Below are positions 452 through 51,266 of a stretch of DNA of 64,000 nucleotides, in pieces. The DNA comes from Candidatus Bathyarchaeota archaeon (GTDB lineage Archaea > Thermoproteota > Bathyarchaeia > Bathyarchaeales > Bathycorpusculaceae). A program made the translations under genes and the position numbers. Position 1 is the stretch's first letter; each line of letters opens with the position of its first letter. The notes under the pieces were generated by a model. The model saw only the letters and a list, made by a program, of their open reading frames with translations, had not been told where the DNA came from and did not search any database. The stretch covers positions 1 through 64,000 of the forward strand of contig CAWHDT010000004.1 of the NCBI GenBank assembly GCA_963828195.1, in the 5' to 3' direction.

Positions 452-1288
452 ATGAATAGCGCAAACAAGGGCTTTTCGGTACTTATCATTGTTCTCTTTA
501 TAGTTTCAAGCCTAATTATGATTAAACCTGCAAATGCTCAGTCAATCCCTAAACCCTCTGTTCCAACATTCACCGTGAAGTATGTTGATAACTCATATGA
601 TGTACCACCCGTAACTACCACTACAACAGACCCATATACAGGGGAAAACCAAACTGTTACTATCCAAGATGGTTATCATGTAGATAATAGGACAATGATA
701 TTCAACATTAAGAATCAACCTTTTACATCCTATAATGATTCAAGCGGCAACTACATTGATTTTTACTACAATTTTAGATACAAGGGGCATTTTGGAACTG
801 AGTGGTCATATTACCCTTTTAACCCCAGCGGAGTATCAAATGGTTTCTACGGTGGAATTGACTTTATACCATTCACCTATTATCCTGCTTCAAATTATGA
901 ATTCACGGTTACATCAATCAATATTAATACATTATCTATTCCTGATAACGGTCAGGTCGATTTTCAAGTACAAGCACAATTGGGATACATAACAGATACA
1001 TCAAGTGCTTATGCAAGCAGAGTTTTTGGGGCTGTTTACAATTTTACTGGTGAATCAAGCGATTGGAGCAATACACAGACGGTCACCATAGGTCAAACTT
1101 CCACTTCTCCATTGACTTCACCAAACCAAACGCTTTCACCAGCACCTACTTCCACACCAACCGTTCCAGAGTTCCCAGCCTTAGCAGTTTTACCCCTGCC
1201 ATTCTCCGCGCTTTTTGTGGCGGCTACCCTTAGTCATCGAAAGAGCTCTCATTCAAGTCAGCAAATCGTTTCCTATGGTCGGGCATAA
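452..1288 (+). CDS. Secreted surface protein with PEF-CTERM-like C-terminal sorting signal
   Basis: Signal peptide ending ANA-Q, IPKPSVPTFTVK start of mature domain, S/T/P linker, then VPEFP + hydrophobic stretch + HRK. Confidence 0.8.
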   Translation: MNSANKGFSVLIIVLFIVSSLIMIKPANAQSIPKPSVPTFTVKYVDNSYDVPPVTTTTTDPYTGENQTVTIQDGYHVDNRTMIFNIKNQPFTSYNDSSGNYIDFYYNFRYKGHFGTEWSYYPFNPSGVSNGFYGGIDFIPFTYYPASNYEFTVTSININTLSIPDNGQVDFQVQAQLGYITDTSSAYASRVFGAVYNFTGESSDWSNTQTVTIGQTSTSPLTSPNQTLSPAPTSTPTVPEFPALAVLPLPFSALFVAATLSHRKSSHSSQQIVSYGRA

Positions 1289-15146: not shown

Positions 15147-16709
15147 TTGTCAGCAGATTTGGCATTAACCAACGTGAACGCCCTAACAATGAACCCGAAC
15201 CAGCCTGTTGCTCAAGCAGTGGCGATAAGAAAAAACAAAATTGTCAAAGTAGGAACAAACCAAGAAATAAACCGGTTAATTGGCAAAGACACAGAAATCA
15301 TAAATTTAACTGGGAAAACTTTAGTTCCCGGCTTAATTGACACGCACATACATGTGGCAGATTTTGGCAGATGCCTGCTTTGGCTTGACTTAACCGGCGC
15401 AGAATCAATCAATAATCTACAAAGCCTCTTAAAAGAAAAGGCTAAGCAAATGCAGGCGGGGAAATGGATAATTGGGCGCGGATGGACCCAGAGCCGCTTC
15501 AAAGAAAACCGTATGCCCAACCTTTCGGACTTAAACGAGGCAGCACCAGATAACCCAGTTATACTGTATCATGGGGCAGCGATGATTTGCGCCGTAAACA
15601 GCAAAGCCATATCAGCAGCTGGCTTGACAGAGCAGACCTCTGTACCTGAAGGGGGCGCCATTGACAAAAACCTAAAGACGGGCAAGCTGACTGGCGTCCT
15701 GCGGGGCACTGCAACAAATCTAATCTGGCGAGCCATTCCTGAGCCAAACGTTGACGAACTTTCGGAGGCGTCGGCGCAAGCTTGCCAAAAAATTGTGGAA
15801 GCAGGCTTAACCAGCGTTCACTGGCTTGTGCTCTCAGAAAACGAGTTACCCATAATTCAGAGGCTCAAAGCAGAAGGCAAACTTCTCGTCAGGGTTAACG
15901 TAGTCATTCCGGAGGCGCTGCTAAAGATAACCGCTGGCCTCCAATCATCTGATCCCCTGATGCTGCGTGTCGGCGGCGTCGGAATTGACGTTGACGGGTA
16001 TTTGGACTCCAAAACAGCCGCGTTATCTCAACCTTACAGTGATGAACCGAATAACAGTGGCAAATTATTCTATACCGAGGAGGCGTTGGCAGGCTCAATC
16101 CAACGGGCTCTGGCGTCTCATCTTCAGCCAGTCGTACATGCGATGGGCGACAAGGCAGTGGATATTACATTGCGAGCAATCGAGCGAGTTGCATCTGCCA
16201 ACGGGGTTCGCTTTCGTATTGAGCAAGCGGCGGTCCTAAGCAAGGAATCAGTCAAGCGCCTGAAAGACCAAAAAGTCGTGGTTACAGTTCAGCCCAAAGT
16301 TATCACAACAGAATTCGCTATTTGGTCAGCATCCGAACACCTCGGCATTGAAAGAACCAACTGGCTTCATCCCCTAAAAACCCTCATTAATGAGGGAGTT
16401 AAAGTGGCTGGCGGTTCAGACTGTCCCATGGAACCTTTAAACCCGATGCTTGGCATGCAAGAAGCAGTCTTGAGACCTGATTGTCCCCAGCAGCGTTTAA
16501 CCGTTGAGGAAGCCTTGCGGATGTACACCCTTGACGCCGCCTACTCTTCGGGTGAAGAAAAAATTAAAGGGTCAATTGAAGAGGGCAAACTAGCCGACTT
16601 AGCAGTTCTATCCGTTGACCCGCTCTCTACCCCGTCCAAGGAGCTTCAAGACGTAAAGGTAGAGATGACCATCATAGATGGAAAAATAGTTTATTCCAAG
16701 ACACCTTGA
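15147..16709 (+). CDS. YtcJ-like amidohydrolase (amidohydrolase 3 family)
   Basis: PGLIDTHIH, WIIGRGW, HAMGD, GSDCP, GKLADL motifs. Confidence 0.88.
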   Translation: MSADLALTNVNALTMNPNQPVAQAVAIRKNKIVKVGTNQEINRLIGKDTEIINLTGKTLVPGLIDTHIHVADFGRCLLWLDLTGAESINNLQSLLKEKAKQMQAGKWIIGRGWTQSRFKENRMPNLSDLNEAAPDNPVILYHGAAMICAVNSKAISAAGLTEQTSVPEGGAIDKNLKTGKLTGVLRGTATNLIWRAIPEPNVDELSEASAQACQKIVEAGLTSVHWLVLSENELPIIQRLKAEGKLLVRVNVVIPEALLKITAGLQSSDPLMLRVGGVGIDVDGYLDSKTAALSQPYSDEPNNSGKLFYTEEALAGSIQRALASHLQPVVHAMGDKAVDITLRAIERVASANGVRFRIEQAAVLSKESVKRLKDQKVVVTVQPKVITTEFAIWSASEHLGIERTNWLHPLKTLINEGVKVAGGSDCPMEPLNPMLGMQEAVLRPDCPQQRLTVEEALRMYTLDAAYSSGEEKIKGSIEEGKLADLAVLSVDPLSTPSKELQDVKVEMTIIDGKIVYSKTP

Positions 16710-36074: not shown

Positions 36075-38188
36075 TTAAAGTTTTAGGTTTTTTAGCCAAT
36101 TGAATAAGTTGGTTTTTTGGGGCATTTGATTTTTCAATGCGAAAGCGGGGTTGTCATCTTTGTTTATGAGCATTTTCTTGATTAAGCCGGTTTTTTCTGC
36201 CTCAACTAGTTTTTGTGTGATCCAACTATCGGATGGGAATGTTTGAGATAGCTTTTGGAGTTCAAGAGTTATCCCTTGGACAGTTGGGTTATGGTTGTTC
36301 TGGGCGTTAGTTACAGCTTTCATTAGAAGCTGGGTTTCCGCAGGAAGCTTTCGGTAGAGGTTTAAAAGGGCAAGTTTTTCTTTTCTATCCAGAAAAACAG
36401 CATAAAGAGTGAGTAAAACAAGAAATACGGTGGCACCTGCTGAAAGCGTAAGGCCATTTTGGCTTATGCCCAATGCGACAGCGGTCCAGGCTCTTATTGG
36501 TTGCCAGTAGTTGTTGATGGCGCTTGCAAATGGAAGTTCTTGATTTTCAGTGTCTGATACGTTTTGCGGTGAGGATGGGTACATGATTAAGCTTATCATT
36601 ACACTTTTTGTTTGAGTCGTGCTGTTCGTGTCGAAAGTGGCTGTTTCATACCAGTAAAGAACCACCTGGGTTTGACCTGTATCTTTGTATTGAAATGCAA
36701 AGTAGCGTGCCGTAATTGGTGGGTTATCTTGGATCAAAATGTCTCTGAGATCAAGTTGAGTCACCGTTAATGGATTACCCGCACTAAGTGGATAATTGAT
36801 TAGGCAGGTTTCCCACCGGTGCTCAGAAACTACGCTGGGCGCGATCTGTATGGCCACCCACAATGATGGGGCTGTCTCGTTAGATGCACTGTAGGAGTAG
36901 ACAAGTGCTGCGTCGTCGCCCGACTGCTGTTCAAACTGTGTATCGCGATAATCGTAACTTAAATTATAGCAGCCACATTTGGAAGCATAGAGCTTGACGT
37001 ATTTATCTGGACACCTGAAGGTGTTTGGACCATAACTTGAGCTGGACCTTGCGTTAAAGCGAGCACAGGCGCTTGAATAGATAAAAGCATAACTACAATT
37101 ACGGCTATTCCCACGATTTTGGCGATGTCGGGTCGATTGAGACTTACTTTTGTATGTTTGAGAAGTTTTCCGCAGCTGGGGCAAAACGGTTTGGTTGAAC
37201 TTGTTTGGCGCGGTCTGCACTCTGGGCATATTGGAGGCGATCGAGGCTTTTTGAAGACTTTGTCAGTTATTGCCAGCAACAAAAGTGTTCCAATGAACAT
37301 AAGGACAGTGGCACCTACGTCGTGGAAAAGTTGTAATGCCAAGTCTTCCCCGAAGTTGTAGCCTATTGCCAAAATAGCAGTTATGCGGATTATGTTGAGC
37401 GCAACAATTAATGGTATACCTAAGGCGAGGATGGCGAATTTGTTACGTAGGTTACCGCGCATAATGTACGCTATGAACAAGGCAAAGATAACAAAGCCTA
37501 TCAAACTATAGATACCAGAGCAAGCCACATCCACATTAAATGGCAATGTTGTGTGGTTGGGTCTTAGAAGCGTTATTACGGGACCAGCGTTACTTGCGGA
37601 GAGCGTTGCATGTAATCCGAAAGTATTCGCAAGAGTATTTGATGCTGATGCACAAAAATTTGCGAGGTACGAACCGAAACCGTAGAGGATTTCGTCAGGC
37701 GGCGGAGTAAGAAATATGAGGAAAGCTATGGGAAAAAATAATTGTTTTAGCGTTTGGAGGTTAAATAGTAAAATGGTTAGTCCCGCCACCAGGAAAGGTA
37801 GAGTAAGCATGTGGTATGTTAACGGTGTGAAGGTGTAGCTTCCATACCAGTACGTCAGGATAGCGACGGCGCATAACGATATCCCAGCTGTTGCGGGGAA
37901 GATTTTTTGGAATCCGCTATTGTCTGTTTGGGGGGGCTGAAGGGCAGCATTAATCATTTTTCGTTTTCTATATAATAAATAAGCGAAGAGTAAGGGAATA
38001 ACGAGTATCTGGTAAGTTGATTGGTCGGTTAAAGCACCTGTAAATACCATGCCTAAGTCTTGAAAGTAAAGCGTAATCACAGCCAGAGTAATGACTGAAG
38101 CTTTCAATGCAATAACCAATCTATGCTGGCTTAGCACTAAAGATACCTTTGAAGTCGTGAAAAAATTGATTTCGTGCATAAGCGGCAC
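36075..38188 (-). pseudogene. Exosortase/archaeosortase fused to Zn-ribbon, EpsI-like and wHTH-like domains; 1-nt frameshift at ~36970 (true lesion or sequencing error)
   Basis: Catalytic-type VDVACSG, NIIRI and LFHD motifs in ORF 36959-38188. HRWETC and VLYWY EpsI-like motifs in ORF 36075-37229. Adding one G at GCT-G^C-TAT gives PNVAGYNLSYDYRD and a ~704-aa protein. Confidence 0.85.
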
Positions 38189-38473
38189 TGACAGTGCTTG
38201 ATGATTTTATGAGTCCTACGATTTATGTTTAATGTATTTTCAGCCTATATTTTCTATTCCTCTTATTTGCGAATGTAGCAATAAAGGGTAAAGGTTCGAA
38301 GCCCTTCGATTTGAAAATTATTTTTCTTCAATCGACGAAAAAAGCTGAAAGCGCTAAGCAATCTTATTCTTAAATATTTGGATTAACGCCTACAATTTAG
38401 TTCGCAGCCGGTTTTTTCCGTATTCTGAAAATATCAAAAGCCGCAAAGCAGACGAATAAGGCAAGTAACTTGC

Positions 38474-38798
38474 CTAACCAAGGCTATATTCAGAAGCAAC
38501 AAAAAGTGGCAACGTGTGTGAAGGAGAGGGCGTTTGGGAAGGAAATGGCGAAGGTGAGGATTTGGAGTTGTTAGTAATGCACGGCAATAAAACTGATTGC
38601 TGCAATAAGCAGGATCAAAAGTACAAGTCGTTTATAGAATTTGTGGGATAAACGAAAACCTCTTGGGGCTGGTTGCGAAGTCAAATACTCTTTATTCTTC
38701 CTGCTTTTACTATAATCATGGATGCATCTATTGAATATAACCATCATGCAATTGGTGGCGGACATATGCGCTCGTTTGACGTACGCACCTGAATCCAT
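38474..38798 (-). pseudogene. Remnant of a membrane-anchored protein (TM anchor + frameshifted S/P linker)
   Basis: ORF ends KRLVLLILLIAAISFIAVHY*; the adjacent frame continues TNNSKSSPSPFPSQTPSPSHT. Confidence 0.4.
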
Positions 38799-39342: not shown

Positions 39343-39549
39343 TCAAAGAAAACCCATAACGCGCATTACGACTGTGGCAAAAAAAGTCAATCCGCAGCCG
39401 ATAGCTGCCATACGCAAAAATTGCTTATCAACGGCTAACCTTGCAGAGTAGTCGGGCGACGAATATAACAGTTCAGAAGTTGTGAGGAGTATTATAGCGG
39501 TTACTGCCAACCACAAACTAATATCAGACAAGCTTAGCGGAAAAACCAT
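39343..39549 (-). CDS. Small 2-TM membrane protein
   Basis: WLAVTAIILLTTSELL and a second TM; GGAGAG RBS; co-oriented with the glycan locus. Confidence 0.75.
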   Translation of the reverse strand: MVFPLSLSDISLWLAVTAIILLTTSELLYSSPDYSARLAVDKQFLRMAAIGCGLTFFATVVMRVMGFL

Positions 39550-39561
39550 TGTATCTCTCCA

Positions 39562-40365
39562 TTAAATAAAATGGAACACTAATTGAACACCACAGTTATT
39601 GGGTGATAGAATCTGCTCGTTAATCGTAACTGTTTTAGCTGAACTCTTGGCAAGTACACTTGCAACACCACTTACAACCGGACAGCCTAAGATCTGAACG
39701 CTCTTCAAAGGGGGATTTGCCCGGTACAAACTCGGATATAAAATGCCAGTTGCCTTGAAACTGACGCCGTCCTTCACGGCGGACATTTCTACCGTTTTAG
39801 CTAGATTAAATGTTTCCGTTAAGCACCTTGGCAAAATTTCCGTTAATTCATAGATAGGAATCTTACTGAAATCTAATTGTAAACGTTTTTCAATTTGAGC
39901 CATAAGGTCTGAGCCGGGAGAAGTAAAAAATGCGCCATGAGTTTTCTCGGATAGAAATCTGCCTGAGGTTAATTCGTCAATTGATGGCTTTCCATCGAAG
40001 CTTTCAGAAACAAAAACGACTGATTCTTTTAGGTTTTTGAGATATTCAGGAAGATTAACATCTTTTGGGTAAGCGGGAATATAGTATCCCTTTGCATTAA
40101 ATTTTAAATCATTAATCATCCGTTCAATTGTGGAATAAGCGGATTTTGCAGTAGCATCTAGAAGGCTGATTTCAACGTACTTTCCATTTCTTGCAAGAGA
40201 AAAAATAACACCCCAAAAAGTCAACCCAAGCCCGATGAAAGCAGCAATCTCCAACCCGAAAAGCATGGAGTAAGCCAAAAGAAGAATCCCGATGACCAAA
40301 AATAACGCTGCAAACGTTGAGGAGCTACGGTTCTTTTTTCGCATAGAGTTCAAACTTGCAAACAC
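39562..40365 (-). CDS. Membrane-anchored hypothetical protein (2 N-terminal TMs; GCP..S.VA C-terminal motif)
   Basis: Long ORF; resembles conserved hypotheticals seen beside archaeal glycosylation genes. Confidence 0.75.
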   Translation of the reverse strand: MFASLNSMRKKNRSSSTFAALFLVIGILLLAYSMLFGLEIAAFIGLGLTFWGVIFSLARNGKYVEISLLDATAKSAYSTIERMINDLKFNAKGYYIPAYPKDVNLPEYLKNLKESVVFVSESFDGKPSIDELTSGRFLSEKTHGAFFTSPGSDLMAQIEKRLQLDFSKIPIYELTEILPRCLTETFNLAKTVEMSAVKDGVSFKATGILYPSLYRANPPLKSVQILGCPVVSGVASVLAKSSAKTVTINEQILSPNNCGVQLVFHFI

Positions 40366-40519: not shown

Positions 40520-43500
40520 TTAACTGTTCCTTCTGTTCGGGGACCTTTTTAGGAACCATACTAAGCTCACAAGAATCACGGTCACAGTTATAGTGGCAAT
40601 TATCAGACCCAAATAAACTTCACTGAATAAAGTTGCTTTATTTGCAGCATTTGCTAACGGACCTGCAGAAGAAGTGGATGAAATAGTCGGCGATGGCGTA
40701 TGCGTAGGTGCAGGTGTTGAGGTTGGATTGGGAGTTCCCTTAGGAACGGCAGTTGGACCCGGAGTTGGATTTTTTGGAGAGTCTGGAGCTGAAGTGGGTA
40801 AAGCTGATGGAGAGGGAGTTGATGCCGGAGTTGAAGTAGGTGTAAGTGTAAATGTTCCAGTGATGCTTTGAGGTCCCTGCACATAACTGAAAACGTAAGA
40901 TGACGCAACTGCTACTGATGAACCGTCAACGGTCAAGGATGCAATGGAGTAACCAGTGCTCGGTGTAATGGTGAAAACTTGGGAGCCACCATAAACAACG
41001 GATGTTGTGTCTGGGGATATCACTCCGTTAGCACCTTGAGTGACGGTAATAGTATATTGATTAATCGCGAAAGCCGCAGTCAAAGAGCCGTCAGCTGAAA
41101 CCGAACTAAACTGGTAAGACTGACCTGAAGACGAAGTAACAGGCACAGAAACGCCATTAGCAGTTATGGTCGCTACGTGATAACCTGTGTTTGGTGTAAT
41201 TGTGAAGCTTGGTGTAGCACCATAGTTAACAGGGCTTGTTCCAGGAGCGATTAATCCGTTGGCAGTCTGAGTAACAGCAATCGTGATTTGGGTCACAATA
41301 ACCGTTGCAGAGGGAGACTGAACTGAAGTTGTGCCTAAGCTGTCAGTAACAGTCACAGTAATCGAGTAAGTGCCCGCAGACGTTGGAGCAAAATTAAATG
41401 TCGAGGAAACATGGCCACTTTGAAGCACGGAATCAACATACCAGCTATAACTCGCGTAAGATCCCGATCCTCCAATAGCAGTAGCTGTAAAAGTCTCACC
41501 CTGGCCGACAACCATTGTCCACGAAGAAGGCGACACAGAAACAGTCGGAACAACATTCACTGAAACTAGCGCAGCATTTGACGGCACTGAAGTTGCGTTT
41601 AAACTGTCAGTCACCGTAACGGTAATCAAGTATGAACCTGAAGCAGCAGGAGAATAATTAAATGTCGATGCAGTCTGGCCGCTTTGAGCAGACCCATTCA
41701 CAAACCACTGATAAGACAAGTAAGAACCCGAACCACCAGAGGCAGAAGCAGTGAACACCTGGAATTGACCAACATTTAAAGTCGCCGAATCAGGCGTCAC
41801 ACTCGCCGTCGGAGCAGCATTCACAGTAACAGAAACCACCGTGGAATTAACCGCGGTTTTGGAACTAGCACTATCCGTAACTTGGAGCTCAAAACTCCAC
41901 GAACCCACAGTTGTTGAGCTTATTGTTGCAAAAGAATAGCTGCTGGAAGCTGCACTGTTAATCGTCGAGTAAGAAGTCGAGTTTGGAGCTTTCTGCAGCC
42001 ATTGGTATGTGTATGGACTTGTGCCAGAGGTAACAGCTGTAGAACCCAAAACTGTAGTTTGACCCTGATCAACCTCGGCTTTAGAAGCAGAAGCAGTCGG
42101 AGATACTAGCGCGGAGTCCACTGTTGCCGAAACGGCGTTAGAAGCAGAAGAAGTAACCGGAATAGAAGCGCTATCGGTTACTTGGCAGGTAATTGAATGT
42201 GAAGTTCCTGAAGCAGTATAAGAATAACTTGTACTGTTAGAGCCAACCATAGTGCCATCCAAGTACCACTGGTAATTAATGCCGCCTGAACCGCCAATAA
42301 CCGCAGCAGTAAAGATTTGAACCTGACCAATATCCATCGCAAGTGGACCAGGAGGAGTGATACTTACTGACGGCGAAGTAGCCACCGAAACGGGTGCGGT
42401 GGAAGATTGAGAAGTTGCACCTGAACTGTCAGTAACAGTCGCACCGATCAAGTAAGTACCCCCGGAGGCAGGAGCAAAACTAAACGTAGATCCGACCTGA
42501 CTAGACTGAGCTGACCCGTTCACATACCATTGATATCCTGTGTAAGACCCCGACCCGCCGCTAGGAGCAGCAGTAAACGTCTCAGACTGACCAACATCCA
42601 TAACCCAAGAAGAAGGCGACACACTCACAGTCAGAGCAACATTAACCACAACAGAAGCCGCCACCGAGGTAACAGTAACTGGAGTACCTGCGCTGTCAGT
42701 CACTTGAAGCTCAAAACTCCAAGACCCTGTAACCGTATAACCGGAAGTAACAAAATTATAACTATTGGAAACCGCGCCTGAAATAGGTGAGAAACTACTG
42801 CCAGGAGCCTCCTCAAACCACTGATACGAATACGGAGAAGATCCCGTTGAAACAGCAGTAGAAGTCAAACTGCAAGTCCGACCCTGATCTACCGTGCCGG
42901 AGTTAGGCGTCACAGTGGGAGCAACCAACGAAGAATTCACCTTAACTGACACGGCGTTAGAAGCAGGAGAAGTAGCTGGAGTAGAAGCGCTATCGGTCAC
43001 CTTACAGGTAACTGAGTGCGTGCCCGCTGAAGCTGTATAGGAATAACGTGCATTGTTAGAGCCAACTACGTTACCATCCACGTACCACTGATAAGAAAGA
43101 GTGCCAGAACCTCCATTAGCCGTGGCAGTAAACGCTTGAATCTGACCAACATCCATTGTAATTGAACTGGAAGGAGTGATGCTTACAGTCGGCGAAGCAG
43201 CAACAGTGACCGATGCGGCGATAGATTGAGCCGAAGTTGCACCTGCACTGTCATTGACAGTCGCAGTAATCAAATAAGTACCCGGGGAAACAGGAGCAAA
43301 ACTAAACGTGGAGGCAGTCGCGCCAGACTGAGCCGTCCCATTCACATACCACTGATAACCCGTATTGGTGCCTGTGCCTCCAGAAACGGTGGTTGTAAAC
43401 GTCGTAGACTGACCAACATCCATAACCCAAGAAGAAGGCGACACATTTACTGAAAGAGAAGCGCTTACTGTAACGGTTGCAGCAGGTGACTGAGGCGAAG

Positions 43501-45274
43501 TAACGCCTGAATTGTCAGTCACTGTCGCAGTAAGTAAATAAGAACCAAAAGCTTCAGGAACAAAATTAAACGTTGACGCAGTCTGGCCAGTCTGAGCAAC
43601 ATTATTCACATACCATTGATAAGCCGTGTAAGAGCCTGAACCGCCAGAAGCAGACGCCGAGAAAGTCTTAGACTGACCAACATCCATAACCCAGGTAGAG
43701 GGCGACACGCTCACAGTTGGCAGATCATTCACCGTAACCGTTGCAGGACCAGAAGTCACTACTACTCCCGCATTATCGGTCACCTGAAGCTCTAAACTCC
43801 AAATGCCTGGAGTCGTAGAACCCGAAGTGACAAAGTTGAAACCCGCTGAATTCGTGCCGACATCAACGTAAGAACCACCAGGAGACTTCTCCAGCCACAG
43901 ATAATTGTAAGGTGAAGTACCTGTCGATACAGCAGTAGAAGTCAAACTACAAGTCTGACTCTGATTCACAGCTGTCGGGTTAGCTGTCACGGTTGGAGCA
44001 GTCAGCTCAGTATTTACTGTGATCGTCGCAGGGGAAGACTGAGCAGAAGTTGCTCCTGAACTGTCAGTAACTGTCACGGTAATCGAGTAAGAACCCACGG
44101 AATCAAGAACATCAGGATCCAAAACGAACGTTGACGATGTCTGACCATTCTGAGCAGCACCATTAACATACCACTGATAACTCATGTAAGACCCTGTACC
44201 CCCGCTGGGAGCAGCAGTAAACGTCTTAGACTGCCCAACATCGATCGTACTTGAAGTAGGCGATACCGTAACAGTAGGAGCAAAGTAAACTGTGCGTATT
44301 TCCTGATACCATTCGTTCTGATTTTGATCCGTGAAGAGATAACATAAGTTATTGTTCGCGATGAAAATTTGTGGACATGCTTCGTCATTCGTTAATAGGG
44401 GACTGTTACCCGATAAAGTGTATCCTGACGTGGGATTTGTAGAATACCACGCATTAATGCGCCACAAACCACTATTAGCTGAAGTTTCTGCTTCAGTCAG
44501 AAGCCAATATTCTCCACCAGTGTACATTATGGTTGGGAAAGCAGTGTTGTATGGTTTTGTAACGTTCATCACTACTGTGTCGCTGGCGGTGCTGAAGCCT
44601 GTTATTGAAGAGGAGGTTCTCGCCATGATTTCCCACCAACCCCCTGAATCATGTCCCTGCACCCAGAACAAGTACCATAAGTTGTTGTTAGGATTGAGCC
44701 ACACGAATGGATTTGTCCACTCGTCGTAAGAAGTTGTTAAAACTGTTCCTGACTCTGTGAATGTTACTCCATTAGAGCTTGTCCATAACTCAACATCCTT
44801 GTTGTTTATGTTGTTTAGGAACATGTAGAAAATTCCGTTAACGTAAACAACCGAGGGAGTACGGTACTCTCCAGTCCCACTTAAAATCGGGTTGCTTGGA
44901 TAAGCAGTCCAAGTTCCAGTGATACTGTTTGAATAATACAGGTTTACGAGGCTACCTTCTTCATTAGAGTCATAAGCCAGGTAAGTCCAAGTTGCACCAT
45001 TAATAGTGGTGTCGCATTGAACGATGTCGGTTGTGTGTACCACTTCAAAGCCATGTTGATCTGTCGGATTGCCAGAAATCGGATTAGAAGCACTAGACAT
45101 AGGATAAAATGAGAGGGGAGTGGCTTGAGCATGAGCAGTTTGAAGAATGTTTGGAACGCTGAAAAGAACGCTAAATGTACTTATCGTCAACAAAGCTATG
45201 ATAAGGCAAGTTACTAAGCGTTTTTTAGTCTGCTTTTCACCTATATTCTTAATCTTGCATAAACGGAAAAACAT
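40520..45274 (-). CDS. 1584-aa surface protein: glycoside-hydrolase-like beta-propeller + tandem Ig/PKD-like repeats + P/T linker + TM
   Basis: Signal peptide; YPSNPIL/SGNSPLL propeller motifs; ~11 repeats with YQW[YLF] and VTVTDS; two ITPxTGYxxxxxTxxG repeats; C-terminal TM + KR. Confidence 0.88.
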   Translation of the reverse strand: MFFRLCKIKNIGEKQTKKRLVTCLIIALLTISTFSVLFSVPNILQTAHAQATPLSFYPMSSASNPISGNPTDQHGFEVVHTTDIVQCDTTINGATWTYLAYDSNEEGSLVNLYYSNSITGTWTAYPSNPILSGTGEYRTPSVVYVNGIFYMFLNNINNKDVELWTSSNGVTFTESGTVLTTSYDEWTNPFVWLNPNNNLWYLFWVQGHDSGGWWEIMARTSSSITGFSTASDTVVMNVTKPYNTAFPTIMYTGGEYWLLTEAETSANSGLWRINAWYSTNPTSGYTLSGNSPLLTNDEACPQIFIANNNLCYLFTDQNQNEWYQEIRTVYFAPTVTVSPTSSTIDVGQSKTFTAAPSGGTGSYMSYQWYVNGAAQNGQTSSTFVLDPDVLDSVGSYSITVTVTDSSGATSAQSSPATITVNTELTAPTVTANPTAVNQSQTCSLTSTAVSTGTSPYNYLWLEKSPGGSYVDVGTNSAGFNFVTSGSTTPGIWSLELQVTDNAGVVVTSGPATVTVNDLPTVSVSPSTWVMDVGQSKTFSASASGGSGSYTAYQWYVNNVAQTGQTASTFNFVPEAFGSYLLTATVTDNSGVTSPQSPAATVTVSASLSVNVSPSSWVMDVGQSTTFTTTVSGGTGTNTGYQWYVNGTAQSGATASTFSFAPVSPGTYLITATVNDSAGATSAQSIAASVTVAASPTVSITPSSSITMDVGQIQAFTATANGGSGTLSYQWYVDGNVVGSNNARYSYTASAGTHSVTCKVTDSASTPATSPASNAVSVKVNSSLVAPTVTPNSGTVDQGRTCSLTSTAVSTGSSPYSYQWFEEAPGSSFSPISGAVSNSYNFVTSGYTVTGSWSFELQVTDSAGTPVTVTSVAASVVVNVALTVSVSPSSWVMDVGQSETFTAAPSGGSGSYTGYQWYVNGSAQSSQVGSTFSFAPASGGTYLIGATVTDSSGATSQSSTAPVSVATSPSVSITPPGPLAMDIGQVQIFTAAVIGGSGGINYQWYLDGTMVGSNSTSYSYTASGTSHSITCQVTDSASIPVTSSASNAVSATVDSALVSPTASASKAEVDQGQTTVLGSTAVTSGTSPYTYQWLQKAPNSTSYSTINSAASSSYSFATISSTTVGSWSFELQVTDSASSKTAVNSTVVSVTVNAAPTASVTPDSATLNVGQFQVFTASASGGSGSYLSYQWFVNGSAQSGQTASTFNYSPAASGSYLITVTVTDSLNATSVPSNAALVSVNVVPTVSVSPSSWTMVVGQGETFTATAIGGSGSYASYSWYVDSVLQSGHVSSTFNFAPTSAGTYSITVTVTDSLGTTSVQSPSATVIVTQITIAVTQTANGLIAPGTSPVNYGATPSFTITPNTGYHVATITANGVSVPVTSSSGQSYQFSSVSADGSLTAAFAINQYTITVTQGANGVISPDTTSVVYGGSQVFTITPSTGYSIASLTVDGSSVAVASSYVFSYVQGPQSITGTFTLTPTSTPASTPSPSALPTSAPDSPKNPTPGPTAVPKGTPNPTSTPAPTHTPSPTISSTSSAGPLANAANKATLFSEVYLGLIIATITVTVILVSLVWFLKRSPNRRNS
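41330..44280 (-). repeat. Intragenic tandem repeat region of the 1584-aa protein
   Basis: Near-identical DNA blocks, e.g. GACTGACCAACATCCATAACCCA at ~42586, ~43407 and ~43671; AGAAGCGCTATCGGT at ~42164 and ~42983. Confidence 0.85.
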
Positions 45275-45637: not shown

Positions 45638-46786
45638 TTAGCCGATCAGTAAACTTTCAAATGCCTCGACCCGCTTATCCCAAGAGCAATCTTCTGCAAA
45701 TCTTATTCTTTTCGCAACTATGGCTTCATGGTCAGGCTTATTGGATTCTTTCACGGCTTCTTCCACCTTTCTTATGAAATCGTCTTCATTTTTTCCGATA
45801 TAGACAAATTCAGATGCGTTATTAATTACCTCTGGCAATGCTGTCGAAACAACGGGTTTCCCTGCCGCCAAGTATTCATACAGTTTTATTGGATTAACTG
45901 CACGTGTAAGCTTGTTTATTCTGAACGGAATCAGACAGACATCCATATAAGCCAAGTACTTTGGAAGAATTTCGTATTTCTTGACGCCAAGCAAGGAAAT
46001 ATTGGGATGTTGTTTGAATTTTTCTAATCCATAATTAACTGGTCCGATAAGCAAAACCGAGTAATCCGAATGCAACTCCGCCAGTTTGCAAACCAACTCC
46101 ACATCAAACCAGTCAGAGATCGCGCCGTGATAGCCAATTATGGGATGCCGTAGACGTTCCATTTCCGAGATTTTTTCATTAACTTTTGTAGCTTTAAGAA
46201 AGTGAGTCACATCAGCTCCATTTGGAACATAAAAGCAATTTGAATTGAACTTTGAGAGCTTCTGACGGAGAGCCTCAGATGTTACAACAACGGCAGAAGA
46301 GTTTGTAACCATATTTTGTTCTTCACGTAACACCCGGGCAACATCAGCCACATCAGAAAAACCGCTTACTTCGTCAACACAGTCGAATAGGATCTTTGTT
46401 CCCATAGCTCTTAGAGTGCTTAAAAGAGGAGCATATGCATTGCCATAGAAAATAGCCACATCAGGTTTAAAATGGAGGAAACGAAGAAACAACTTGAGAC
46501 CCGACACTTCAAGACCCCCATTAATGAACCTCAGTTTACCTTCAAAAGGAGGAAGAAACATGTTAACTGCGCTGAGCCGACTATTGATTTTTTTTCTTAA
46601 AAACAGGTTTTCGCTAGTAACAATCCATGAAAACTTGTTCAAGTACAATGGACCTTGAATGTACAGTACCGTATGACCGTTTCTAGCTAGTCTTGAGGCC
46701 AACTGTTGAGGCCTTTCCCAAAGTACCGTTTTCTTCTGAGAAAGAGTAAGCATACCATATACCGGAGAAAGCATAAGTATTTTCAA
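45638..46786 (-). CDS. GT4-like (GT-B) glycosyltransferase
   Basis: WERPQQLA, FDCVD, VPNGAD, NPIKLYEYLAAGKPVVST. Confidence 0.9.
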   Translation of the reverse strand: MKILMLSPVYGMLTLSQKKTVLWERPQQLASRLARNGHTVLYIQGPLYLNKFSWIVTSENLFLRKKINSRLSAVNMFLPPFEGKLRFINGGLEVSGLKLFLRFLHFKPDVAIFYGNAYAPLLSTLRAMGTKILFDCVDEVSGFSDVADVARVLREEQNMVTNSSAVVVTSEALRQKLSKFNSNCFYVPNGADVTHFLKATKVNEKISEMERLRHPIIGYHGAISDWFDVELVCKLAELHSDYSVLLIGPVNYGLEKFKQHPNISLLGVKKYEILPKYLAYMDVCLIPFRINKLTRAVNPIKLYEYLAAGKPVVSTALPEVINNASEFVYIGKNEDDFIRKVEEAVKESNKPDHEAIVAKRIRFAEDCSWDKRVEAFESLLIG

Positions 46787-46943
46787 TTTAATCGACTCTC
46801 CATATTACTACATCACGAGGTAAAAGAGCATCACAAATCGATTTTTTAGTTTGAGTCTCAATAGTTACAATCAACTTGAGCGGCCCCGACTAATCCTTTT
46901 GTTTGATGTTAAAAGCGCCAGGTTATGTCGGCGTTTTTTGTGT

Positions 46944-48071
46944 TCAAACAGTTCCGAAACTTTGTTGACTAACCTTTGAATGTCCGGCAAATTCGCTTTC
47001 CAATATACTGACTATTTTTTTGCCTGTTGTACCATCGCCGAACGGGTTTACCCAACTTTTTTTGTGATCACAGCTGATTTTGGCTGCTTCAAGAATTTTT
47101 TCAGGGTTCGTGCCTGCGAGCATGTTTGACCCAACTTCCAAGGTCTCAGGTCTTTCGGTGTTATCTCGCAAAGTAACGCAGGGAACGCCAAGAATACAAG
47201 TTTCTTCTTGTACACCGCCAGAATCAGTTAAGACAAGTTTAGCTTTGCTTTCGAGTTGAATGAAAGCCAAATAGTCTAAAGGCTCAACCAACGTTATGCC
47301 TGTGTGATCTATGCCGAACTGATATAGCTGCTTTTTGGCCCTCGGATGAATGGGGTAAATCAGCTGAACCTTGAATTCACTCTGAACTAATTGCAAACCT
47401 CGAATAAGCCCTGAGAATTTGTTCTTGTCGTCAACATTTTCCTGCCGATGAGCTGTAGCTAGCATGTATTGGTTGCTTTCGACGCCCAAGGAGTCAAAGA
47501 TTTTGTTTTTTGATTTAGCTATTTCCAAGTTTTGGTACAGAGCGTCAACAACTGTGTTTCCAACCACGAAAATCTTCTTTTCTTCGATACCTTCGTGGAG
47601 CAGTATTTCCCTAGATTTTGGGGTTGGAGCAAACAAGTAATCTGAACAGTGATCAGTCAATATTCTGTTAATCTCTTCAGGCATACTCCTGTCATAACTG
47701 CGCAAACCAGCTTCAACATGCCCAACTTTGATTCCAAGTTTTACGGCGGCTAAAGCACCTGCTAAAACTGTATTTGTGTCTCCTTCAACGAGTACGACGT
47801 CTGGAGATTCTTTCTGCAAAACTTCTTCTATGCCTGCAAGCATCTTACCTGTTTGCTGCCCATGGCTTCCGGAACCGACATCAAGATTGTACTTTGCTTC
47901 AGGCAGATTAAGCTGCTCAAAGAAGACTTTATCCATGTTATAAGAGTAATGCTGTCCGGTATGCAGAATAAAATAATTCAAATTCAATCTGCTGCATTCT
48001 CGGATTATTGGTGAACATTTTACTATTTCAGGTCGGGTTCCCAAAATAACAGATATTTTCATGTTGAACAT
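46944..48071 (-). CDS. wecB: UDP-N-acetylglucosamine 2-epimerase (non-hydrolysing)
   Basis: GTRPEIVK, HTGQHY, GDTNT, HVEAGLRS, PEEINR, TDSGGVQEE, TERPE. Confidence 0.96.
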   Translation of the reverse strand: MFNMKISVILGTRPEIVKCSPIIRECSRLNLNYFILHTGQHYSYNMDKVFFEQLNLPEAKYNLDVGSGSHGQQTGKMLAGIEEVLQKESPDVVLVEGDTNTVLAGALAAVKLGIKVGHVEAGLRSYDRSMPEEINRILTDHCSDYLFAPTPKSREILLHEGIEEKKIFVVGNTVVDALYQNLEIAKSKNKIFDSLGVESNQYMLATAHRQENVDDKNKFSGLIRGLQLVQSEFKVQLIYPIHPRAKKQLYQFGIDHTGITLVEPLDYLAFIQLESKAKLVLTDSGGVQEETCILGVPCVTLRDNTERPETLEVGSNMLAGTNPEKILEAAKISCDHKKSWVNPFGDGTTGKKIVSILESEFAGHSKVSQQSFGTV

Positions 48072-48090
48072 TTACTCCCGCTGCAAAGTA

Positions 48091-49053
48091 CTATGATGAA
48101 GGTAAGTTAAGGGCGTTTGTTTTAGGGCGAGAACGAAAGTTAAAAAGGTAACCGATTGTCCACGCGGACCGCTTAAAAACAAAGTTCAGCGGCAACAAAA
48201 TACAACGTTTATCATTTGTGGCCTTGTATGCCTTCAAGATGTCTCTCGAAGAAACTAAAATGCCAAATGAAATGTCAAAGAAATTCAATATCAAGGTTCG
48301 CTCGCGCAGAGTTTCTTTGACATAAGTTTTTTCAATAGTTGCCCAATTTTTTCCCCACGCCTTATATTGCCTAAAAAGAGCTTTCCACGTAGGTCGTGAA
48401 TAATGATAAAACACTGCTGACTGCAAAAGATGAAGTTTGTATCCCAACATAGTCAATCTTTCAGCTAAGTCAGTATCTTCAGATGCAAATCGGAAAATCT
48501 CGCGAAAACCGCCCGCATCCAATATAGCGTCCTTTTCAAACACACTACCGCCTAATGCAAAGGTATTCGAGGCAACCACAAGTTGCGCCCCTCTTTCATT
48601 AATACACATTGCGTAGTTTTCCAACGCTCCTGACAGTGGCAAATTGTAAGTTAAACCTTGAACTCCACGGACTGCAGCAACCTTAGAGGAAGTTTTCAAG
48701 TATTCAATTGTGTTGCGCAGAAATTCAGGGTGTAAACGTTGGTCAGAATCCACAAAAGAAACGTAGTCTCCCTTGGATAGGTCAACAATTAACTGTCTGG
48801 CGTAACCCAATCCTCGCCCATCATCTGTCGCTATTTGCCAGTTAAATTTGGAATTACTTAATATTTCTTCGGCGATTTTTAAAGTTTGATCTTTAGATTT
48901 TCCGTCAACTAGCACGACTTGAATTTGATCGGCAGGATAAATCAAATTAAGTAGAGATTTTAAAGCATCTGCTATTGTCGCTTGGCAGTTTAATGTGCAG
49001 ATCCCAATTGTGACCAAGGGAACATCCGCAGGAATTTGTTTCAAATGAATCAC
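48091..49053 (-). CDS. GT2 family glycosyltransferase
   Basis: LVDGKSKD, GLGYAR, FVDSD, SEDTDL. Confidence 0.9.
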   Translation of the reverse strand: MIHLKQIPADVPLVTIGICTLNCQATIADALKSLLNLIYPADQIQVVLVDGKSKDQTLKIAEEILSNSKFNWQIATDDGRGLGYARQLIVDLSKGDYVSFVDSDQRLHPEFLRNTIEYLKTSSKVAAVRGVQGLTYNLPLSGALENYAMCINERGAQLVVASNTFALGGSVFEKDAILDAGGFREIFRFASEDTDLAERLTMLGYKLHLLQSAVFYHYSRPTWKALFRQYKAWGKNWATIEKTYVKETLRERTLILNFFDISFGILVSSRDILKAYKATNDKRCILLPLNFVFKRSAWTIGYLFNFRSRPKTNALNLPSS

Positions 49054-49136
49054 TTGATTAGATTATTGTTCTTACTAATCTTAACATTTGTTTCCCATTG
49101 AAAACAGGTTTTACCTGTTTCTGTGCATTTACTTTA

Positions 49137-51266
49137 TTATCCGCCTGGCGCTTCGTAGACTTCGCTGCCTCCGTTTGTATAAACAAGATCTGTCTGATTA
49201 AGAACTGGCGAAAGTGTACCGTTCCAAACTAATTTTTCATAGTTAACACTAACATAACTTAGACCTACGAATTCACCAGGAGATACAAAGGAATTATTCG
49301 TGAGAGCTCCAACATATCCAGGGTAGATAAGGCCATAACCAGTTAACGCAGTATCGAGCCCGTAATCAGCAATAAGAGTATAATTATTTTGGTAGGGAAC
49401 ATTATTAGAAATCCATTCTGCACAATATACACTGTGAGTGTCAATAAAACCGTAGTCCACGTATAACTGCAGGGGGTTCATTCTGTATTCGCTTAGTGGA
49501 ATAGACCAGCTTTCGGTTTTTGCAACTTCATAAACAAAGTTTGTTTGGAAGAGAAAATAAGGAACTATTATAGCAACAATGAGTAACGAAAACAGTATTT
49601 TTTTCTCATGCTTGAAGACAAACTGGACTGATGTCCACATGCCTATTACGCAGAAAGGTGCTAAGAACATTAGCAATATGTGATAGAACCGCGTCATGTT
49701 TAAGGCGTTTGCTAATCCTGGAACTGCAATTAATGCAGCCAACAAACCTAAAGCTACAATACTAAAAATCGTGTATTCTCGGTCAAAACGAAAACGAGTT
49801 TTTTTCAAGATTAAAGCAAATATGCCTATGGCAATAAAAACTTCAGTCAAATATGCGAAGGCTCTGCTGACAGTATTTAGCATGGAAGGAGACTGCGCTA
49901 ACCCTATTCCGGTTAAAACTTCCGTACCTCTAGATGCTGGGTTAAAAATCCCGCCGAATTGGGAAGCAACTAGATTTGCGATTGAAGTGAAACTGTTAAA
50001 GACGGCGGAGCCTGAAGTAAAAATGTACCAGGCGAACATTGCCACGAAGAAAAATACAATCATGCTAAACTGCAAATTGAAGTGGGGGCGTTTCAGATAC
50101 ACTGAAGCGAGCCATGCAGCAAAAATCATAAAGAGAAAAATTTCTGCCAATGCATAATGGGATAAAATTAAGCCAACGCTGAAGATGGCAAAACTTGCGA
50201 ATTTAACGCCTTGCTTGATTTTCTTGTTTAACAGCACCAGCAGTAAGAGGACAAAAAATAATTCACCAATCATCTGCCGGTTTAACCCAGTCAATTCGGT
50301 GAAAAATGTTATATCAGCCATGAACACGAAGGCTGAGAAAAAAGCAAATTTCTTGCCAATGTATGGCTTCCAAAGAAGGTATAGACCCAGAGGGACTAAT
50401 GCAAAGATGAGGGGATAAATTACTTTGTACACCCAGGTAAGGGAGATTCCAAGTAGGTTTGAGTAGACAGTTGGAAGTATGGTGATGCTGAGCATTGCGT
50501 TGTATCTGCCAAATGTCAGGTCGGAAGGCACAGAAAATACTGGATTCCAATGAGAGAGAAGTTGGGTTGTTCCGGCAACGAAAAGTTCGTTTGGAGAATC
50601 GCTTCCATAGGGCAGTATGTAGTTAGATATCAGGGAAGTCTGAAACAGCAACGCTATAGCGACCATAAGTATAGCGAATGGGTAAATATTTGTGGATTTT
50701 CCATGAAATGCGATGGCGGTGAACAGCAGGGCAACAGATGCAATCATGATTAATAAAAATACGTTGTCGCCTGATACGTTTACAAAATATGCGCCTATGA
50801 TGCTTAAGAGAGGAATTAAAGTTAAAAGCAAAAATGACGGGGAAAAGCTTTGGTTTTGAGGATTCGAATCTGGTTTTGCTTTTTCCTGTCTTAGTTGAGT
50901 TGCGACCGCGCCTACAAGTACCAGGGTATTTATGGATAAGGACAAGGGTAAAGTAGAAAGAGGAAAGCTGTACCCAACTAATGCACCAAACTCATTTATA
51001 ATCAATCCTGCAACCAAAAGAAAAGCAACGCTAAAGCCAACGGCGTAGATGATGAATTCAGCTGTGCCAAGTTCAAGTTTTAAAAGCTTAATAACGATGA
51101 AGCCTGGGACAAATGTCAGGTAAAAAAGGCCAATTACTTCCCTAGCCAATGGAAAATTAAGAAAAAGCGAAATGTACATTGCAACTTGTAGAAAAACAAC
51201 TATACCTAGAAAGTGCCGCGAAAGATATTTTTGATTAAAATCCATTTTTAGATGCACCAAAATCAA
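49137..51266 (-). CDS. DUF2206 multi-pass membrane protein (GT-C-like / polymerase candidate)
   Basis: YLTFVPG, GSD..E, LSITILPTVYS, RQMIGELF, SHY, RFYHI motifs; more than 12 TMs. Confidence 0.82.
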   Translation of the reverse strand: MILVHLKMDFNQKYLSRHFLGIVVFLQVAMYISLFLNFPLAREVIGLFYLTFVPGFIVIKLLKLELGTAEFIIYAVGFSVAFLLVAGLIINEFGALVGYSFPLSTLPLSLSINTLVLVGAVATQLRQEKAKPDSNPQNQSFSPSFLLLTLIPLLSIIGAYFVNVSGDNVFLLIMIASVALLFTAIAFHGKSTNIYPFAILMVAIALLFQTSLISNYILPYGSDSPNELFVAGTTQLLSHWNPVFSVPSDLTFGRYNAMLSITILPTVYSNLLGISLTWVYKVIYPLIFALVPLGLYLLWKPYIGKKFAFFSAFVFMADITFFTELTGLNRQMIGELFFVLLLLVLLNKKIKQGVKFASFAIFSVGLILSHYALAEIFLFMIFAAWLASVYLKRPHFNLQFSMIVFFFVAMFAWYIFTSGSAVFNSFTSIANLVASQFGGIFNPASRGTEVLTGIGLAQSPSMLNTVSRAFAYLTEVFIAIGIFALILKKTRFRFDREYTIFSIVALGLLAALIAVPGLANALNMTRFYHILLMFLAPFCVIGMWTSVQFVFKHEKKILFSLLIVAIIVPYFLFQTNFVYEVAKTESWSIPLSEYRMNPLQLYVDYGFIDTHSVYCAEWISNNVPYQNNYTLIADYGLDTALTGYGLIYPGYVGALTNNSFVSPGEFVGLSYVSVNYEKLVWNGTLSPVLNQTDLVYTNGGSEVYEAPGG

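Follow-up and report, generated by a model that had tools for sequence, protein, structure and literature searches.

Bacterial exosortase-EpsI fusions (XrtW and XrtD, and also XrtA and XrtV) join an EpsH core of eight transmembrane (TM) helices, with Cys, Arg and His as its catalytic residues, to an extra membrane helix and then an EpsI-like domain outside the membrane. In passages of Haft 2006 (PMC1569441), EpsI is fused or adjacent to EpsH and 'has no known function', an EpsI-like region is described for only 'a number' of EpsH proteins, and EpsH genes lie among glycosyltransferase-type gene neighbourhoods. The archaeosortases ArtA to ArtF and thaumarchaeosortase share the exosortase/archaeosortase signature TIGR04178 and are paired with archaeal surface proteins that have three-part C-terminal signals. 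A section of a 2018 review (PMC6098224) treats ArtA as the experimentally studied model for lipid anchoring and describes exosortases as not analysed experimentally. We studied a gene on the minus strand at positions 36075-38188 of a 64,000-nucleotide stretch of DNA from Candidatus Bathyarchaeota archaeon (assembly GCA_963828195.1, contig CAWHDT010000004.1), which as a whole is referred to as the window. We think it probable that this gene is a copy, inactivated not long ago, of an exosortase-type transpeptidase of some 700 residues that is conserved in Bathyarchaeia and whose cargo would carry a VVPEY-type C-terminal signal.

Two overlapping minus-strand open reading frames (ORFs), in different frames, span exactly 36075-38188. 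ORF1 (36959-38188, 409 residues, GTG start) encodes the exosortase core, a zinc ribbon, a ninth membrane helix and about 30 residues from the start of an ectodomain, and it terminates at a TAA that a frameshift created. ORF2 (36075-37229, 384 residues) resembles the family only in the part from 36968 downward. A frameshift had been suspected in the preliminary description of this gene, and it was recovered as a one-base gap in a DNA alignment with six homologues: one base is missing at GTGGC-TGCTAT (36968-36973), and the relatives continue ..LPN[IV]xGYxLxYxYRD.. through the break in a single frame. Every motif quoted in that description was found at its place in a read-through translation with an X at the break, namely VACSG at residue 221, NIIRI at 265, FHD at 288, CPEC at 321, CPSC at 336, HRWETC at 457, VLYWY at 510, TVQGITLELQKL at 636 and WITQKLVEAEKTGLIKK at 656. 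The order of domains it gave (core, zinc ribbon, TM helix, EpsI-like ectodomain, second TM helix, cytoplasmic winged helix) agreed with ours as well.

The catalytic membrane core lies at 37268-38086 on the minus strand (ORF1 residues 35-307) and matches PF09721 with an E-value of 2.8e-33 (115.8 bits, cut-off 25.7); a genome search found it at the same site. ORF1 also scored 71.8 bits against TIGR04178 (cut-off 23), and both superfamily models match 46 of 46 relatives. Cys223 (in VACSG), Arg268 (NIIRI) and His289 (FHD) are the proposed catalytic residues of ORF1, and their columns are invariant in alignments A1 (46 sequences) and A7 (51 sequences). Judged by these profile matches, which go well beyond chance, the protein is a member of the exosortase/archaeosortase superfamily. 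A core of about eight TM helices had been proposed. This is what the Pfam and TIGRFAM core models represent, whereas the hydropathy scan itself gave six strong helices in the core, with one more at residues 358-376 and one at 582-600.

None of the named NCBIfam exosortase or archaeosortase subfamilies reached its cut-off with ORF1. The highest scores were from bacterial-type models: XrtW (NF038142) scored 79.1 against a cut-off of 425, 8TM_EpsH (TIGR02602) 75.3 against 105.55, XrtA 73.8 against 208, XrtD (TIGR04152) 73.4 against 400 and XrtV 72.8 against 313. The archaeal models gave 24.9 against 100 (ArtC), 22.6 against 150 (ArtF), 21.7 against 75 (ArtA), 19.8 against 150 (ArtB) and 10.9 against 130 (heimdallarchaeosortase). 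Every listed subfamily score was also below cut-off for the intact relative P0001, the other 45 relatives being known by E-values only. The XrtW model aligns with residues 14-505 of P0001 over profile positions 3-434 of 494, and the protein shares with the bacterial fusions both the catalytic core and the extra helix that precedes an EpsI-like domain. It differs from them in its archaeal host, in a Cys4 ribbon inserted after the core, in a second extra helix with a cytoplasmic winged helix, in subfamily scores that are all far below cut-off, and in its VVPEY-type signal, since a comparison of 17 such signals with the curated models at E ≤ 10 gave no PEP-CTERM match. With the archaeosortases and thaumarchaeosortase it has in common the TIGR04178 signature and the three-part signals of archaeal surface proteins. 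However, it is about twice as long as an archaeosortase, has three added domains and scores weakly against these models; by score it is nearer to the bacterial-type exosortases.

The C-terminal 297 residues alone retrieved at least 250 proteins of at least 521 residues (E ≤ 1e-3), nearly all with a length of about 690-710 residues, the best match being 687 residues long and 76% identical. All of the 120 homologues listed carry PF09721 and most are 676-728 residues long; their organism labels, where given, are without exception Bathyarchaeota or Bathyarchaeia. In species-representative genomes a relative is encoded in 96 stretches, of which 80 were retained as loci. These are nearly all labelled Bathyarchaeia or Bathyarchaeota, with single records labelled Methanocella, Nanoarchaeia and Desulfobacterales. 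The last of these, from a metagenome-assembled genome (L078, 6437-7312), is a partial copy at a contig end with 43% identity over residues 19-307, and this copy in a bacterial bin may reflect a mis-binned contig or a transfer. Near-full-length copies in a single frame were present in 62 loci. The alignment of full-length relatives comprises 61 of them; L054, with an extended ORF of 1214 residues, was left out.

A profile of the ectodomain (E ≤ 1e-10) detected the family in 26 of 301 genomes sampled across the class and in 24 of the 152 high-quality ones, with a concentration in the window's own taxonomic family (17/48). Within the genus the sortase appears to be accessory, since strong matches (E ≤ 1e-50) were found in just 12 of 37 genomes. 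Taken at the level of sequence, the architecture is that of a conserved Bathyarchaeia family and not a one-off. The suggestion of an undescribed archaeal sortase class has to be narrowed accordingly, as the architecture is not unique to this gene, yet no named NCBIfam subfamily was reached, and a search of full-text literature, with subscription journals largely outside its scope, found no description of the architecture or of an exosortase from Bathyarchaeia.

Genes beside the sortase point to its cargo, whose C-terminal signal and whose remnant upstream of this gene had gone unnoticed in the preliminary description. The signal sought in related loci was a C-terminal P[ED]x motif together with a membrane helix and a basic cluster. 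A signal-bearing ORF was present within three ORFs of the sortase in 35 of 73 related loci, and in 26 it was an immediate neighbour. At position -1 the signal occurred in 19 of 52 ORFs, compared with 16 of 666 beyond three ORFs on either side and, for the genome of the window, 39 of 2649. Close to the window's clade, the signal has the form [FL][VI][VI]PEY-x-[LF]-G-[GA]-L..AL..CF..F..KK (17 sequences, model A4). The general form of the tag beside intact relatives is VVPEY-x-LGGLAAL..CF..F-KKR, and deeper clades have VVPE[LVI] or [VI]P[DE]xP[LV]..GLGLF..KKR. The bodies of the cargo proteins are ice-binding-like, PQQ propeller or Ig-like, with no Pfam match in 16 of 23, a variety that a sorting tag would lead one to expect.

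The signal and the sortase also occur together across genomes. In a subset of the genus, A4 matched five of five genomes with the sortase and none of five without it, the latter being 95-100% complete. In the genus overall it matched 10 of the 12 sortase-bearing genomes and four of the 25 that lack the sortase; one of these four, G026, has a sortase remnant. The class sample of 301 contained 18 genomes with sortase and signal, eight with the sortase only, 274 with neither and a single one with the signal only (G224, 69% complete). Two control signals from the window's genome, A3 (PEF-type) and A9, each matched five of five genomes with the sortase and five of five without. Matches to A4 cluster beside the sortase in G003, G008, G034, G002, G035, G031, G038 and G043, and in the first three of these the one adjoining the sortase is the only match. 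Matches away from the sortase were numerous, with 18 A4 matches in G030 and 14 in G273. By co-occurrence and adjacency, the sortase family and the VVPEY-type signal appear to form an enzyme-signal pair.

Three points have to be set against this pairing. Model A4 was built from sortase-adjacent ORFs and some of the searched genomes are their sources, so its matches in sortase-bearing genomes are partly there by construction. The related genomes in the co-occurrence counts are not independent. Eight sortase-bearing genomes of the class sample gave no A4 match, deep branches using the variant [VI]P[DE]xP. The informative results are the near absence of A4 elsewhere and the many non-adjacent matches, neither of which arises by construction.

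The tag is apparently uncatalogued among the NCBIfam sorting-signal models, to judge from model searches. At E ≤ 10 the 17 VVPEY signals gave no match to the PEP-CTERM, PEF-CTERM or PEFG-CTERM model, in searches where the HMMER filters drop many weak matches, and the best NCBIfam signal model was PFE-CTERM (3/17, E 0.031). In a positive control on PEF-type signals of the window's genome, PEF-CTERM (TIGR03024) matched 16 of 24 and PEFG-CTERM (TIGR04296) four of 24.

Behind the core, a Cys4 zinc ribbon (CPEC-x11-CPSC, 37172-37228, minus strand) lies in a basic cytoplasmic linker and is followed by the ninth membrane helix (37061-37117, hydropathy 2.61), which would lead out of the cell. A tenth helix (36390-36446, hydropathy 2.24) would return to the cytoplasm. 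Basic linkers are present after the core and after helix 10, and N-glycosylation sequons occur in the ectodomain at 1.54 per 100 residues (0.77 when shuffled) and in the tail at 0.50 (0.97 when shuffled). Together, the linkers and the sequon distribution suggest that the ribbon and the winged helix are cytoplasmic and that the EpsI-like domain is outside, where we infer that it sits next to the active site. The ribbon has the pattern CPxC-x(10-13)-CxxCG in the family, and its four Cys are invariant in alignment A1 and present in 58 of 61 full-length relatives, in which the segment has a median net charge of +7. The Pfam zinc-ribbon models were below cut-off in the window (DZR_2, 19.1 bits against 27); by their spacing and conservation, the CxxC pairs are a predicted zinc ribbon.

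The ectodomain (36489-37060, minus strand) is split over two frames by the frameshift. The domain had been called EpsI-like, and its position behind the extra helix agrees with this, as do the matches to PF11984 (DUF3485/EpsI) at E ≤ 0.1 in 18 of 46 full-length members, the best having an E-value of 3.7e-6. Among 61 isolated ectodomains, PF11984 matches 13 (best 6e-5) and TIGR02914 two (best 0.0037). Precomputed PF11984 assignments exist for two of the 120 listed homologues, and in the Atlas 26 of the 30 nearest named clusters carry PF11984, with a borderline score of 0.92 and 169 shared features. Against this kinship, the window's own ectodomain piece gave no match to PF11984 or TIGR02914 at E ≤ 1, and by sequence the relation of the family to EpsI is weak and remote. 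The ectodomain profile run on proteins of 107-361 residues gave 128 matches; none of the 120 listed carries PF11984, so no bridge to EpsI was seen among them, and by identity and length these proteins appear to be fragments of family members or the halves of split ones. A search with PF11984 found no match in G000 (the window's genome), G003 or the genome of L078, and none in 14 control genomes, which makes it uninformative. On balance we regard the ectodomain as quite probably a distant homologue of EpsI.

The predicted structure of the ectodomain (predicted local distance difference test, pLDDT, 82.1) has a Mog1/PsbP-like fold. Proteins of this fold include DcrB, Mog1, PsbP, TiME, LpqN and the Eag/SciW chaperones, and the model resembled DcrB (Z 8.8, root-mean-square deviation (rmsd) 3.5 Å, 116 aligned residues), Mog1 (Z 8.4), PsbP (Z 7.6) and SciW (Foldseek E 1.1e-3). 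With identities of 2-13% and Z-scores that are middling by the tool's scale, the likeness is in fold only. No solved EpsI structure was among the structural matches. SciW/Eag proteins have, by the titles of their structure entries, been solved bound to a transmembrane domain.

The cytoplasmic tail (36075-36374 with its stop codon, minus strand) had been read as a winged helix, and structure prediction bore this out. The model (pLDDT 89.8, predicted template modelling score 0.80) has the element order H-H-H-H-E-E-H, that is, three helices and a beta-hairpin wing with flanking helices, and the 50 best structural matches (Foldseek, VIA) are all winged helices. We are highly confident that the tail, as modelled, is a winged-helix fold. 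The best match is the Cdc6/Orc1 winged helix (Z 11.3, rmsd 3.4 Å, 93 residues), and winged-helix domains of Orc1/Cdc6 (C-terminal), Fur, MecI/BlaI, MarR and Rio2 (N-terminal) align with Z 8-11.3 over 66-93 residues. Pfam Cdc6_C matches two of 46 family members at E 0.0012. All 61 full-length loci have a tail that aligns. It differs from these winged-helix domains in being the C-terminal part of an enzyme, tethered there to a membrane helix, and in that the helix at its recognition position is not basic.

A profile of the tail searched against 1.84 billion protein representatives gave 391 matches at E ≤ 1e-3. Among the best 150 of these, 81 also hold the ectodomain, 64 are short fragments and five are others (P0138, P0159, P0183, P0263 and P0132, the last with weak repeats and probably spurious). 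To go by these best 150, the tail is at that sensitivity specific to this sortase family. In P0159 (917 residues) and P0183 (494 residues) the EpsI-like domain is absent and the catalytic Cys is replaced by Trp or Ser, yet both keep the winged-helix tail; P0159 runs on into extra helices and a DUF7982-like domain fused to the sortase. P0138 (309 residues) is a flippase-like polytopic membrane segment that ends in the same tail. At L054 (8450-12091) a flippase-like N-terminus and the sortase are apparently encoded in one open frame of 1214 residues. Weak matches to tail residues 623-680 lie at 15679-15843 and 19996-20168 of L012, downstream of a frame-broken sortase copy.

In an intact member of the family, the cargo would be secreted proteins with varied extracellular domains that end in VVPE[Y/F/L/V], a membrane helix (typically LGGLAAL..CF..F) and a cluster of Lys and Arg. 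The Cys/Arg/His core would cut at the motif on the outer face and hand the protein over to a surface anchor; cleavage and anchoring are the most likely reactions in view of the homology with exosortases and archaeosortase A. The EpsI-like ectodomain, with its Mog1/PsbP-like fold, would sit outside beside the active site, and the zinc ribbon and winged helix would be on the cytoplasmic face. Since this is where the basic tail of the cargo would emerge, we tentatively favour, at somewhat less than even chances, a role of this module in docking or gating, either of that tail or of a cytoplasmic partner, over a DNA-binding output.

A metal- or DNA-binding output inside the cell had been suggested from the start. 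In the DNA-binding form of this idea the winged helix would contact DNA, alone or together with the zinc ribbon, and the enzyme would be a membrane-tethered regulator that couples surface-protein processing to transcription. Many of the structural matches of the tail (Orc1/Cdc6 winged helix, Fur, MecI/BlaI, MarR, PadR) do bind DNA, and the tail core has a median net charge of +2 and a median isoelectric point (pI) of 9.2. In addition, P0159 and P0183 have kept the tail after losing the catalytic Cys and the ectodomain, which suggests a role apart from catalysis. However, a shared fold shows no function, the pI of the core spans 5.0-10.1 in the family, and the best-conserved residues are a buried Leu and the Pro and Trp of the wing. 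The median net charge is +1 for the wing and -1 (range -4 to +2) for the helix at the recognition position, which has a conserved acidic residue. No free-standing regulator with this domain was present among the best 150 of the 391 profile matches, 145 of which are family members or fragments. We consider a DNA-binding role unlikely. More doubtful still is a broader version, a new archaeal sorting system in which a bacterial-type exosortase and the uncatalogued VVPEY-CTERM signal form a two-way device by means of the ribbon and the winged helix. In such a device a tethered regulator or sensor would read the processing of cargo, or the outside by way of the EpsI-like domain, and would signal to DNA or a cytoplasmic partner so as to control surface-protein and glycan genes.

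Whichever part the module plays, the copy in the window is probably a real pseudogene. The frameshift deprives the sortase of its ectodomain, final helix and winged helix, the neighbouring cargo gene is reduced to a remnant, and the system appears to be decaying in this genome. The only A4 match of the genome (C4:38403-38477, E 7.7e-7) shares the strand of the sortase and lies immediately upstream of it. It falls in a 28-residue open frame and belongs to the remnant of a substrate gene at 38400-38602 (minus strand). In this remnant an S/P-rich linker leads to ..FVASEYSLG and a stop codon (38477-38602), and the helix and basic cluster follow in another frame (38400-38477). The invariant Pro of the motif is replaced by Ser (PEY to SEY), and by comparison with the neighbours of the sortase in L003 and L004 the ~150-residue body of the L004 neighbour is missing. 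An ORF of 75 residues (38571-38798, minus strand) is possibly a 5' remnant of the same gene, as its last part looks like the signal anchor at the N-terminus of the L004 substrate, a likeness seen by eye on two sequences and without an alignment score. No other A4-type signal was found in the genome at E ≤ 0.01, and a VVPEY regular expression gave none in six frames. In the sortase itself three of 106 invariant columns are changed, including the Trp of the wing, which is invariant in the family and is Leu here.

Some of the evidence speaks less clearly for decay. In a leave-one-out control, members of the family had 0-6 changed invariant columns each, and the three changes in the window are not exceptional since four of 46 members reach three or more. 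The contigs of runs X1 (36912-37500) and X3 (36763-36978) have the version of the window, with no gap, but both come from one study, have a depth of 2.5-3.9 and may represent the source sample, and X3 extends only ~10 bases past the site; runs X2 and X4 had no coverage there. Frame changes inside this gene were seen in nine of 80 related loci (L012, L019, L024, L032, L037, L041, L055, L062 and L070), so errors or recurrent decay are common in it.

These observations leave some room for an assembly or sequencing error, in which case the organism would make an intact enzyme of ~704 residues. Many C-terminal halves of relatives are annotated as separate 'hypothetical proteins' on long contigs, and the partner genes at 39343-40365 are intact. 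Nevertheless, 75 of 76 other orthologue-like places in the genome, compared through proteins from related loci, read in a single frame and the sortase is the only split one, so the assembly is not error-prone, and no homopolymer run is present where the frameshift lies. One wrong base call cannot yield the loss of the cargo gene's body, its own frameshift and its Pro to Ser change, and it leaves aside the missing A4-type signals elsewhere in the genome and the replaced Trp of the wing. We therefore think an error improbable as an explanation.

ORF1 could also be active by itself as a shorter sortase without EpsI, consisting of the core, the ribbon and one extra helix, so that the gene would be truncated and not dead. 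ORF1 retains the whole catalytic core with its Cys, Arg and His, and the core can exist without an EpsI-like region, which Haft 2006 (PMC1569441) attributes, in the passage quoted above, to 'a number' of EpsH proteins. Yet no intact cognate cargo remains in the genome, and none of the 61 full-length relatives has lost the ectodomain or the tail, so that both are under selection. The two relatives without the ectodomain have also lost the catalytic Cys. There is, in our view, little chance that the truncated protein functions. A programmed frameshift was rejected, as the site shows no slippery heptamer and the homologues continue through it in one frame.

The cargo might be sought elsewhere in the genome, which holds about 30 proteins ending in an S/T/P-rich linker, PT[VI]PE[FL][PS], a helix and a basic cluster (for example at window positions 452-1288 on the plus strand, at C8:144470-145021 and at C5:913188-914318). 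Were these PT[VI]PEF proteins with their S/T-rich linkers the targets of the long sortase, it would be an analogue of archaeosortase C. Their signals are largely recognised by the PEF-CTERM and PEFG-CTERM models, as given above, and the P-E-aromatic motif, the membrane helix and the basic cluster resemble those of VVPEY. The VVPEY signal differs in following directly after a folded domain and in its own conserved helix (G at +3, CF..F), and the PEF models match none of its 17 sequences. PEF-type signals, unlike VVPEY, do not track the long sortase: five genus genomes without it have 17-58 PEF matches (E ≤ 1) and five with it have 26-67. Because numbers are comparable without the long sortase, a second sortase of ~355 residues, thaumarchaeosortase-like (80.8 bits) and weakly matched in most genomes of the genus, is the likelier partner. 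PEF-type signals were rejected as cargo, model A3 matching genomes with and without the long sortase alike, and we give this alternative hardly any weight. The VVPEY proteins remain the preferred cargo of the long sortase.

The gene of the second sortase (L002:1390-2454, minus strand, equivalent to ~236.2-237.3 kb of G000:C1) encodes 354 residues. Its best match is thaumarchaeosortase TIGR04297 with a cut-off of 250, so it is outside the named subfamilies too, and open frames of similar size (~350-370 residues) gave the weak matches in most genus genomes. PEFG-CTERM signals pair with thaumarchaeosortase. Signals of the A9 type end in ..SQTINFT..PFP, an AGLLVxF helix and KKRK, and are found in tandem genes (C3:244881-246488 and C3:267781-272189) and at L004:12315-13172. 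The PFP..AGLLV..KKRK signal was rejected as cargo since it matches genomes with and without the long sortase, five of five each. About 25 paralogues of ~840-990 residues in the window's genome end in ..(D/T)xYFVPAIAG, a helix and LRK[KR]P at the very C-terminus (for example C1:238682-241336, C3:13502-16240 and C8:68491-71241). This ending is possibly a third class of anchor or sorting signal.

Other genomes of the genus contain traces of the long sortase. A broken copy with stops in G023 (C5:80215-81087) consists of residues 387-678 alone, and an internally deleted copy in G026 (C89:3081-3299) has the first 50 codons fused to the last 23. Together with G000, these suggest an accessory system that has been lost repeatedly within one genus. 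The window's own copy, as a decaying pseudogene, is of less value in itself and illustrates such loss. Exosortase systems are widespread, and the Bathyarchaeia branch adds an apparently uncatalogued enzyme-signal pair. Genomes G003, G008 and G034, in which one sortase adjoins its only detectable cargo, offer minimal pairs convenient for reconstitution. The cytoplasmic module has no counterpart in the named exosortase models scanned, and may provide a handle on how the cytoplasmic end of the signal is read.

The commonest neighbour of the sortase is a membrane protein of ~260-280 residues (context family 1), found at 42 of 74 loci, 26 of which have it at +1. In the Atlas, 30 of its 30 nearest clusters are PF25939 (DUF7982-like); Pfam gave scattered weak matches, the best being NfeD_membrane in six of 31. 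The second neighbour is a two-helix protein of ~70 residues (context family 2), in 28 of 74 loci and at +2 in 14. Both are intact in the window, on the minus strand, as a membrane protein of 267 residues (family 1, 39562-40365) and a small two-helix membrane protein (family 2, 39343-39549). A complex predicted for the full-length sortase of L036 and its family 1 neighbour scored 0.01 against a mark of 0.32, which is evidence neither way. Flippase-like, glycosyltransferase and sugar-epimerase genes are other common neighbours, a setting similar to that of EpsH genes in the part of Haft 2006 (PMC1569441) mentioned above. Elsewhere on the minus strand of the window, 40520-45274 encodes a surface protein of 1584 residues with many PKD/Ig-like repeats, a C-terminal helix and a basic tail. 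Next to it, genes for GT1 and GT2 glycosyltransferases, a UDP-GlcNAc 2-epimerase and a DUF2206 protein (45638-51266, minus strand) form a surface-glycan cluster beside the decayed sortase locus.

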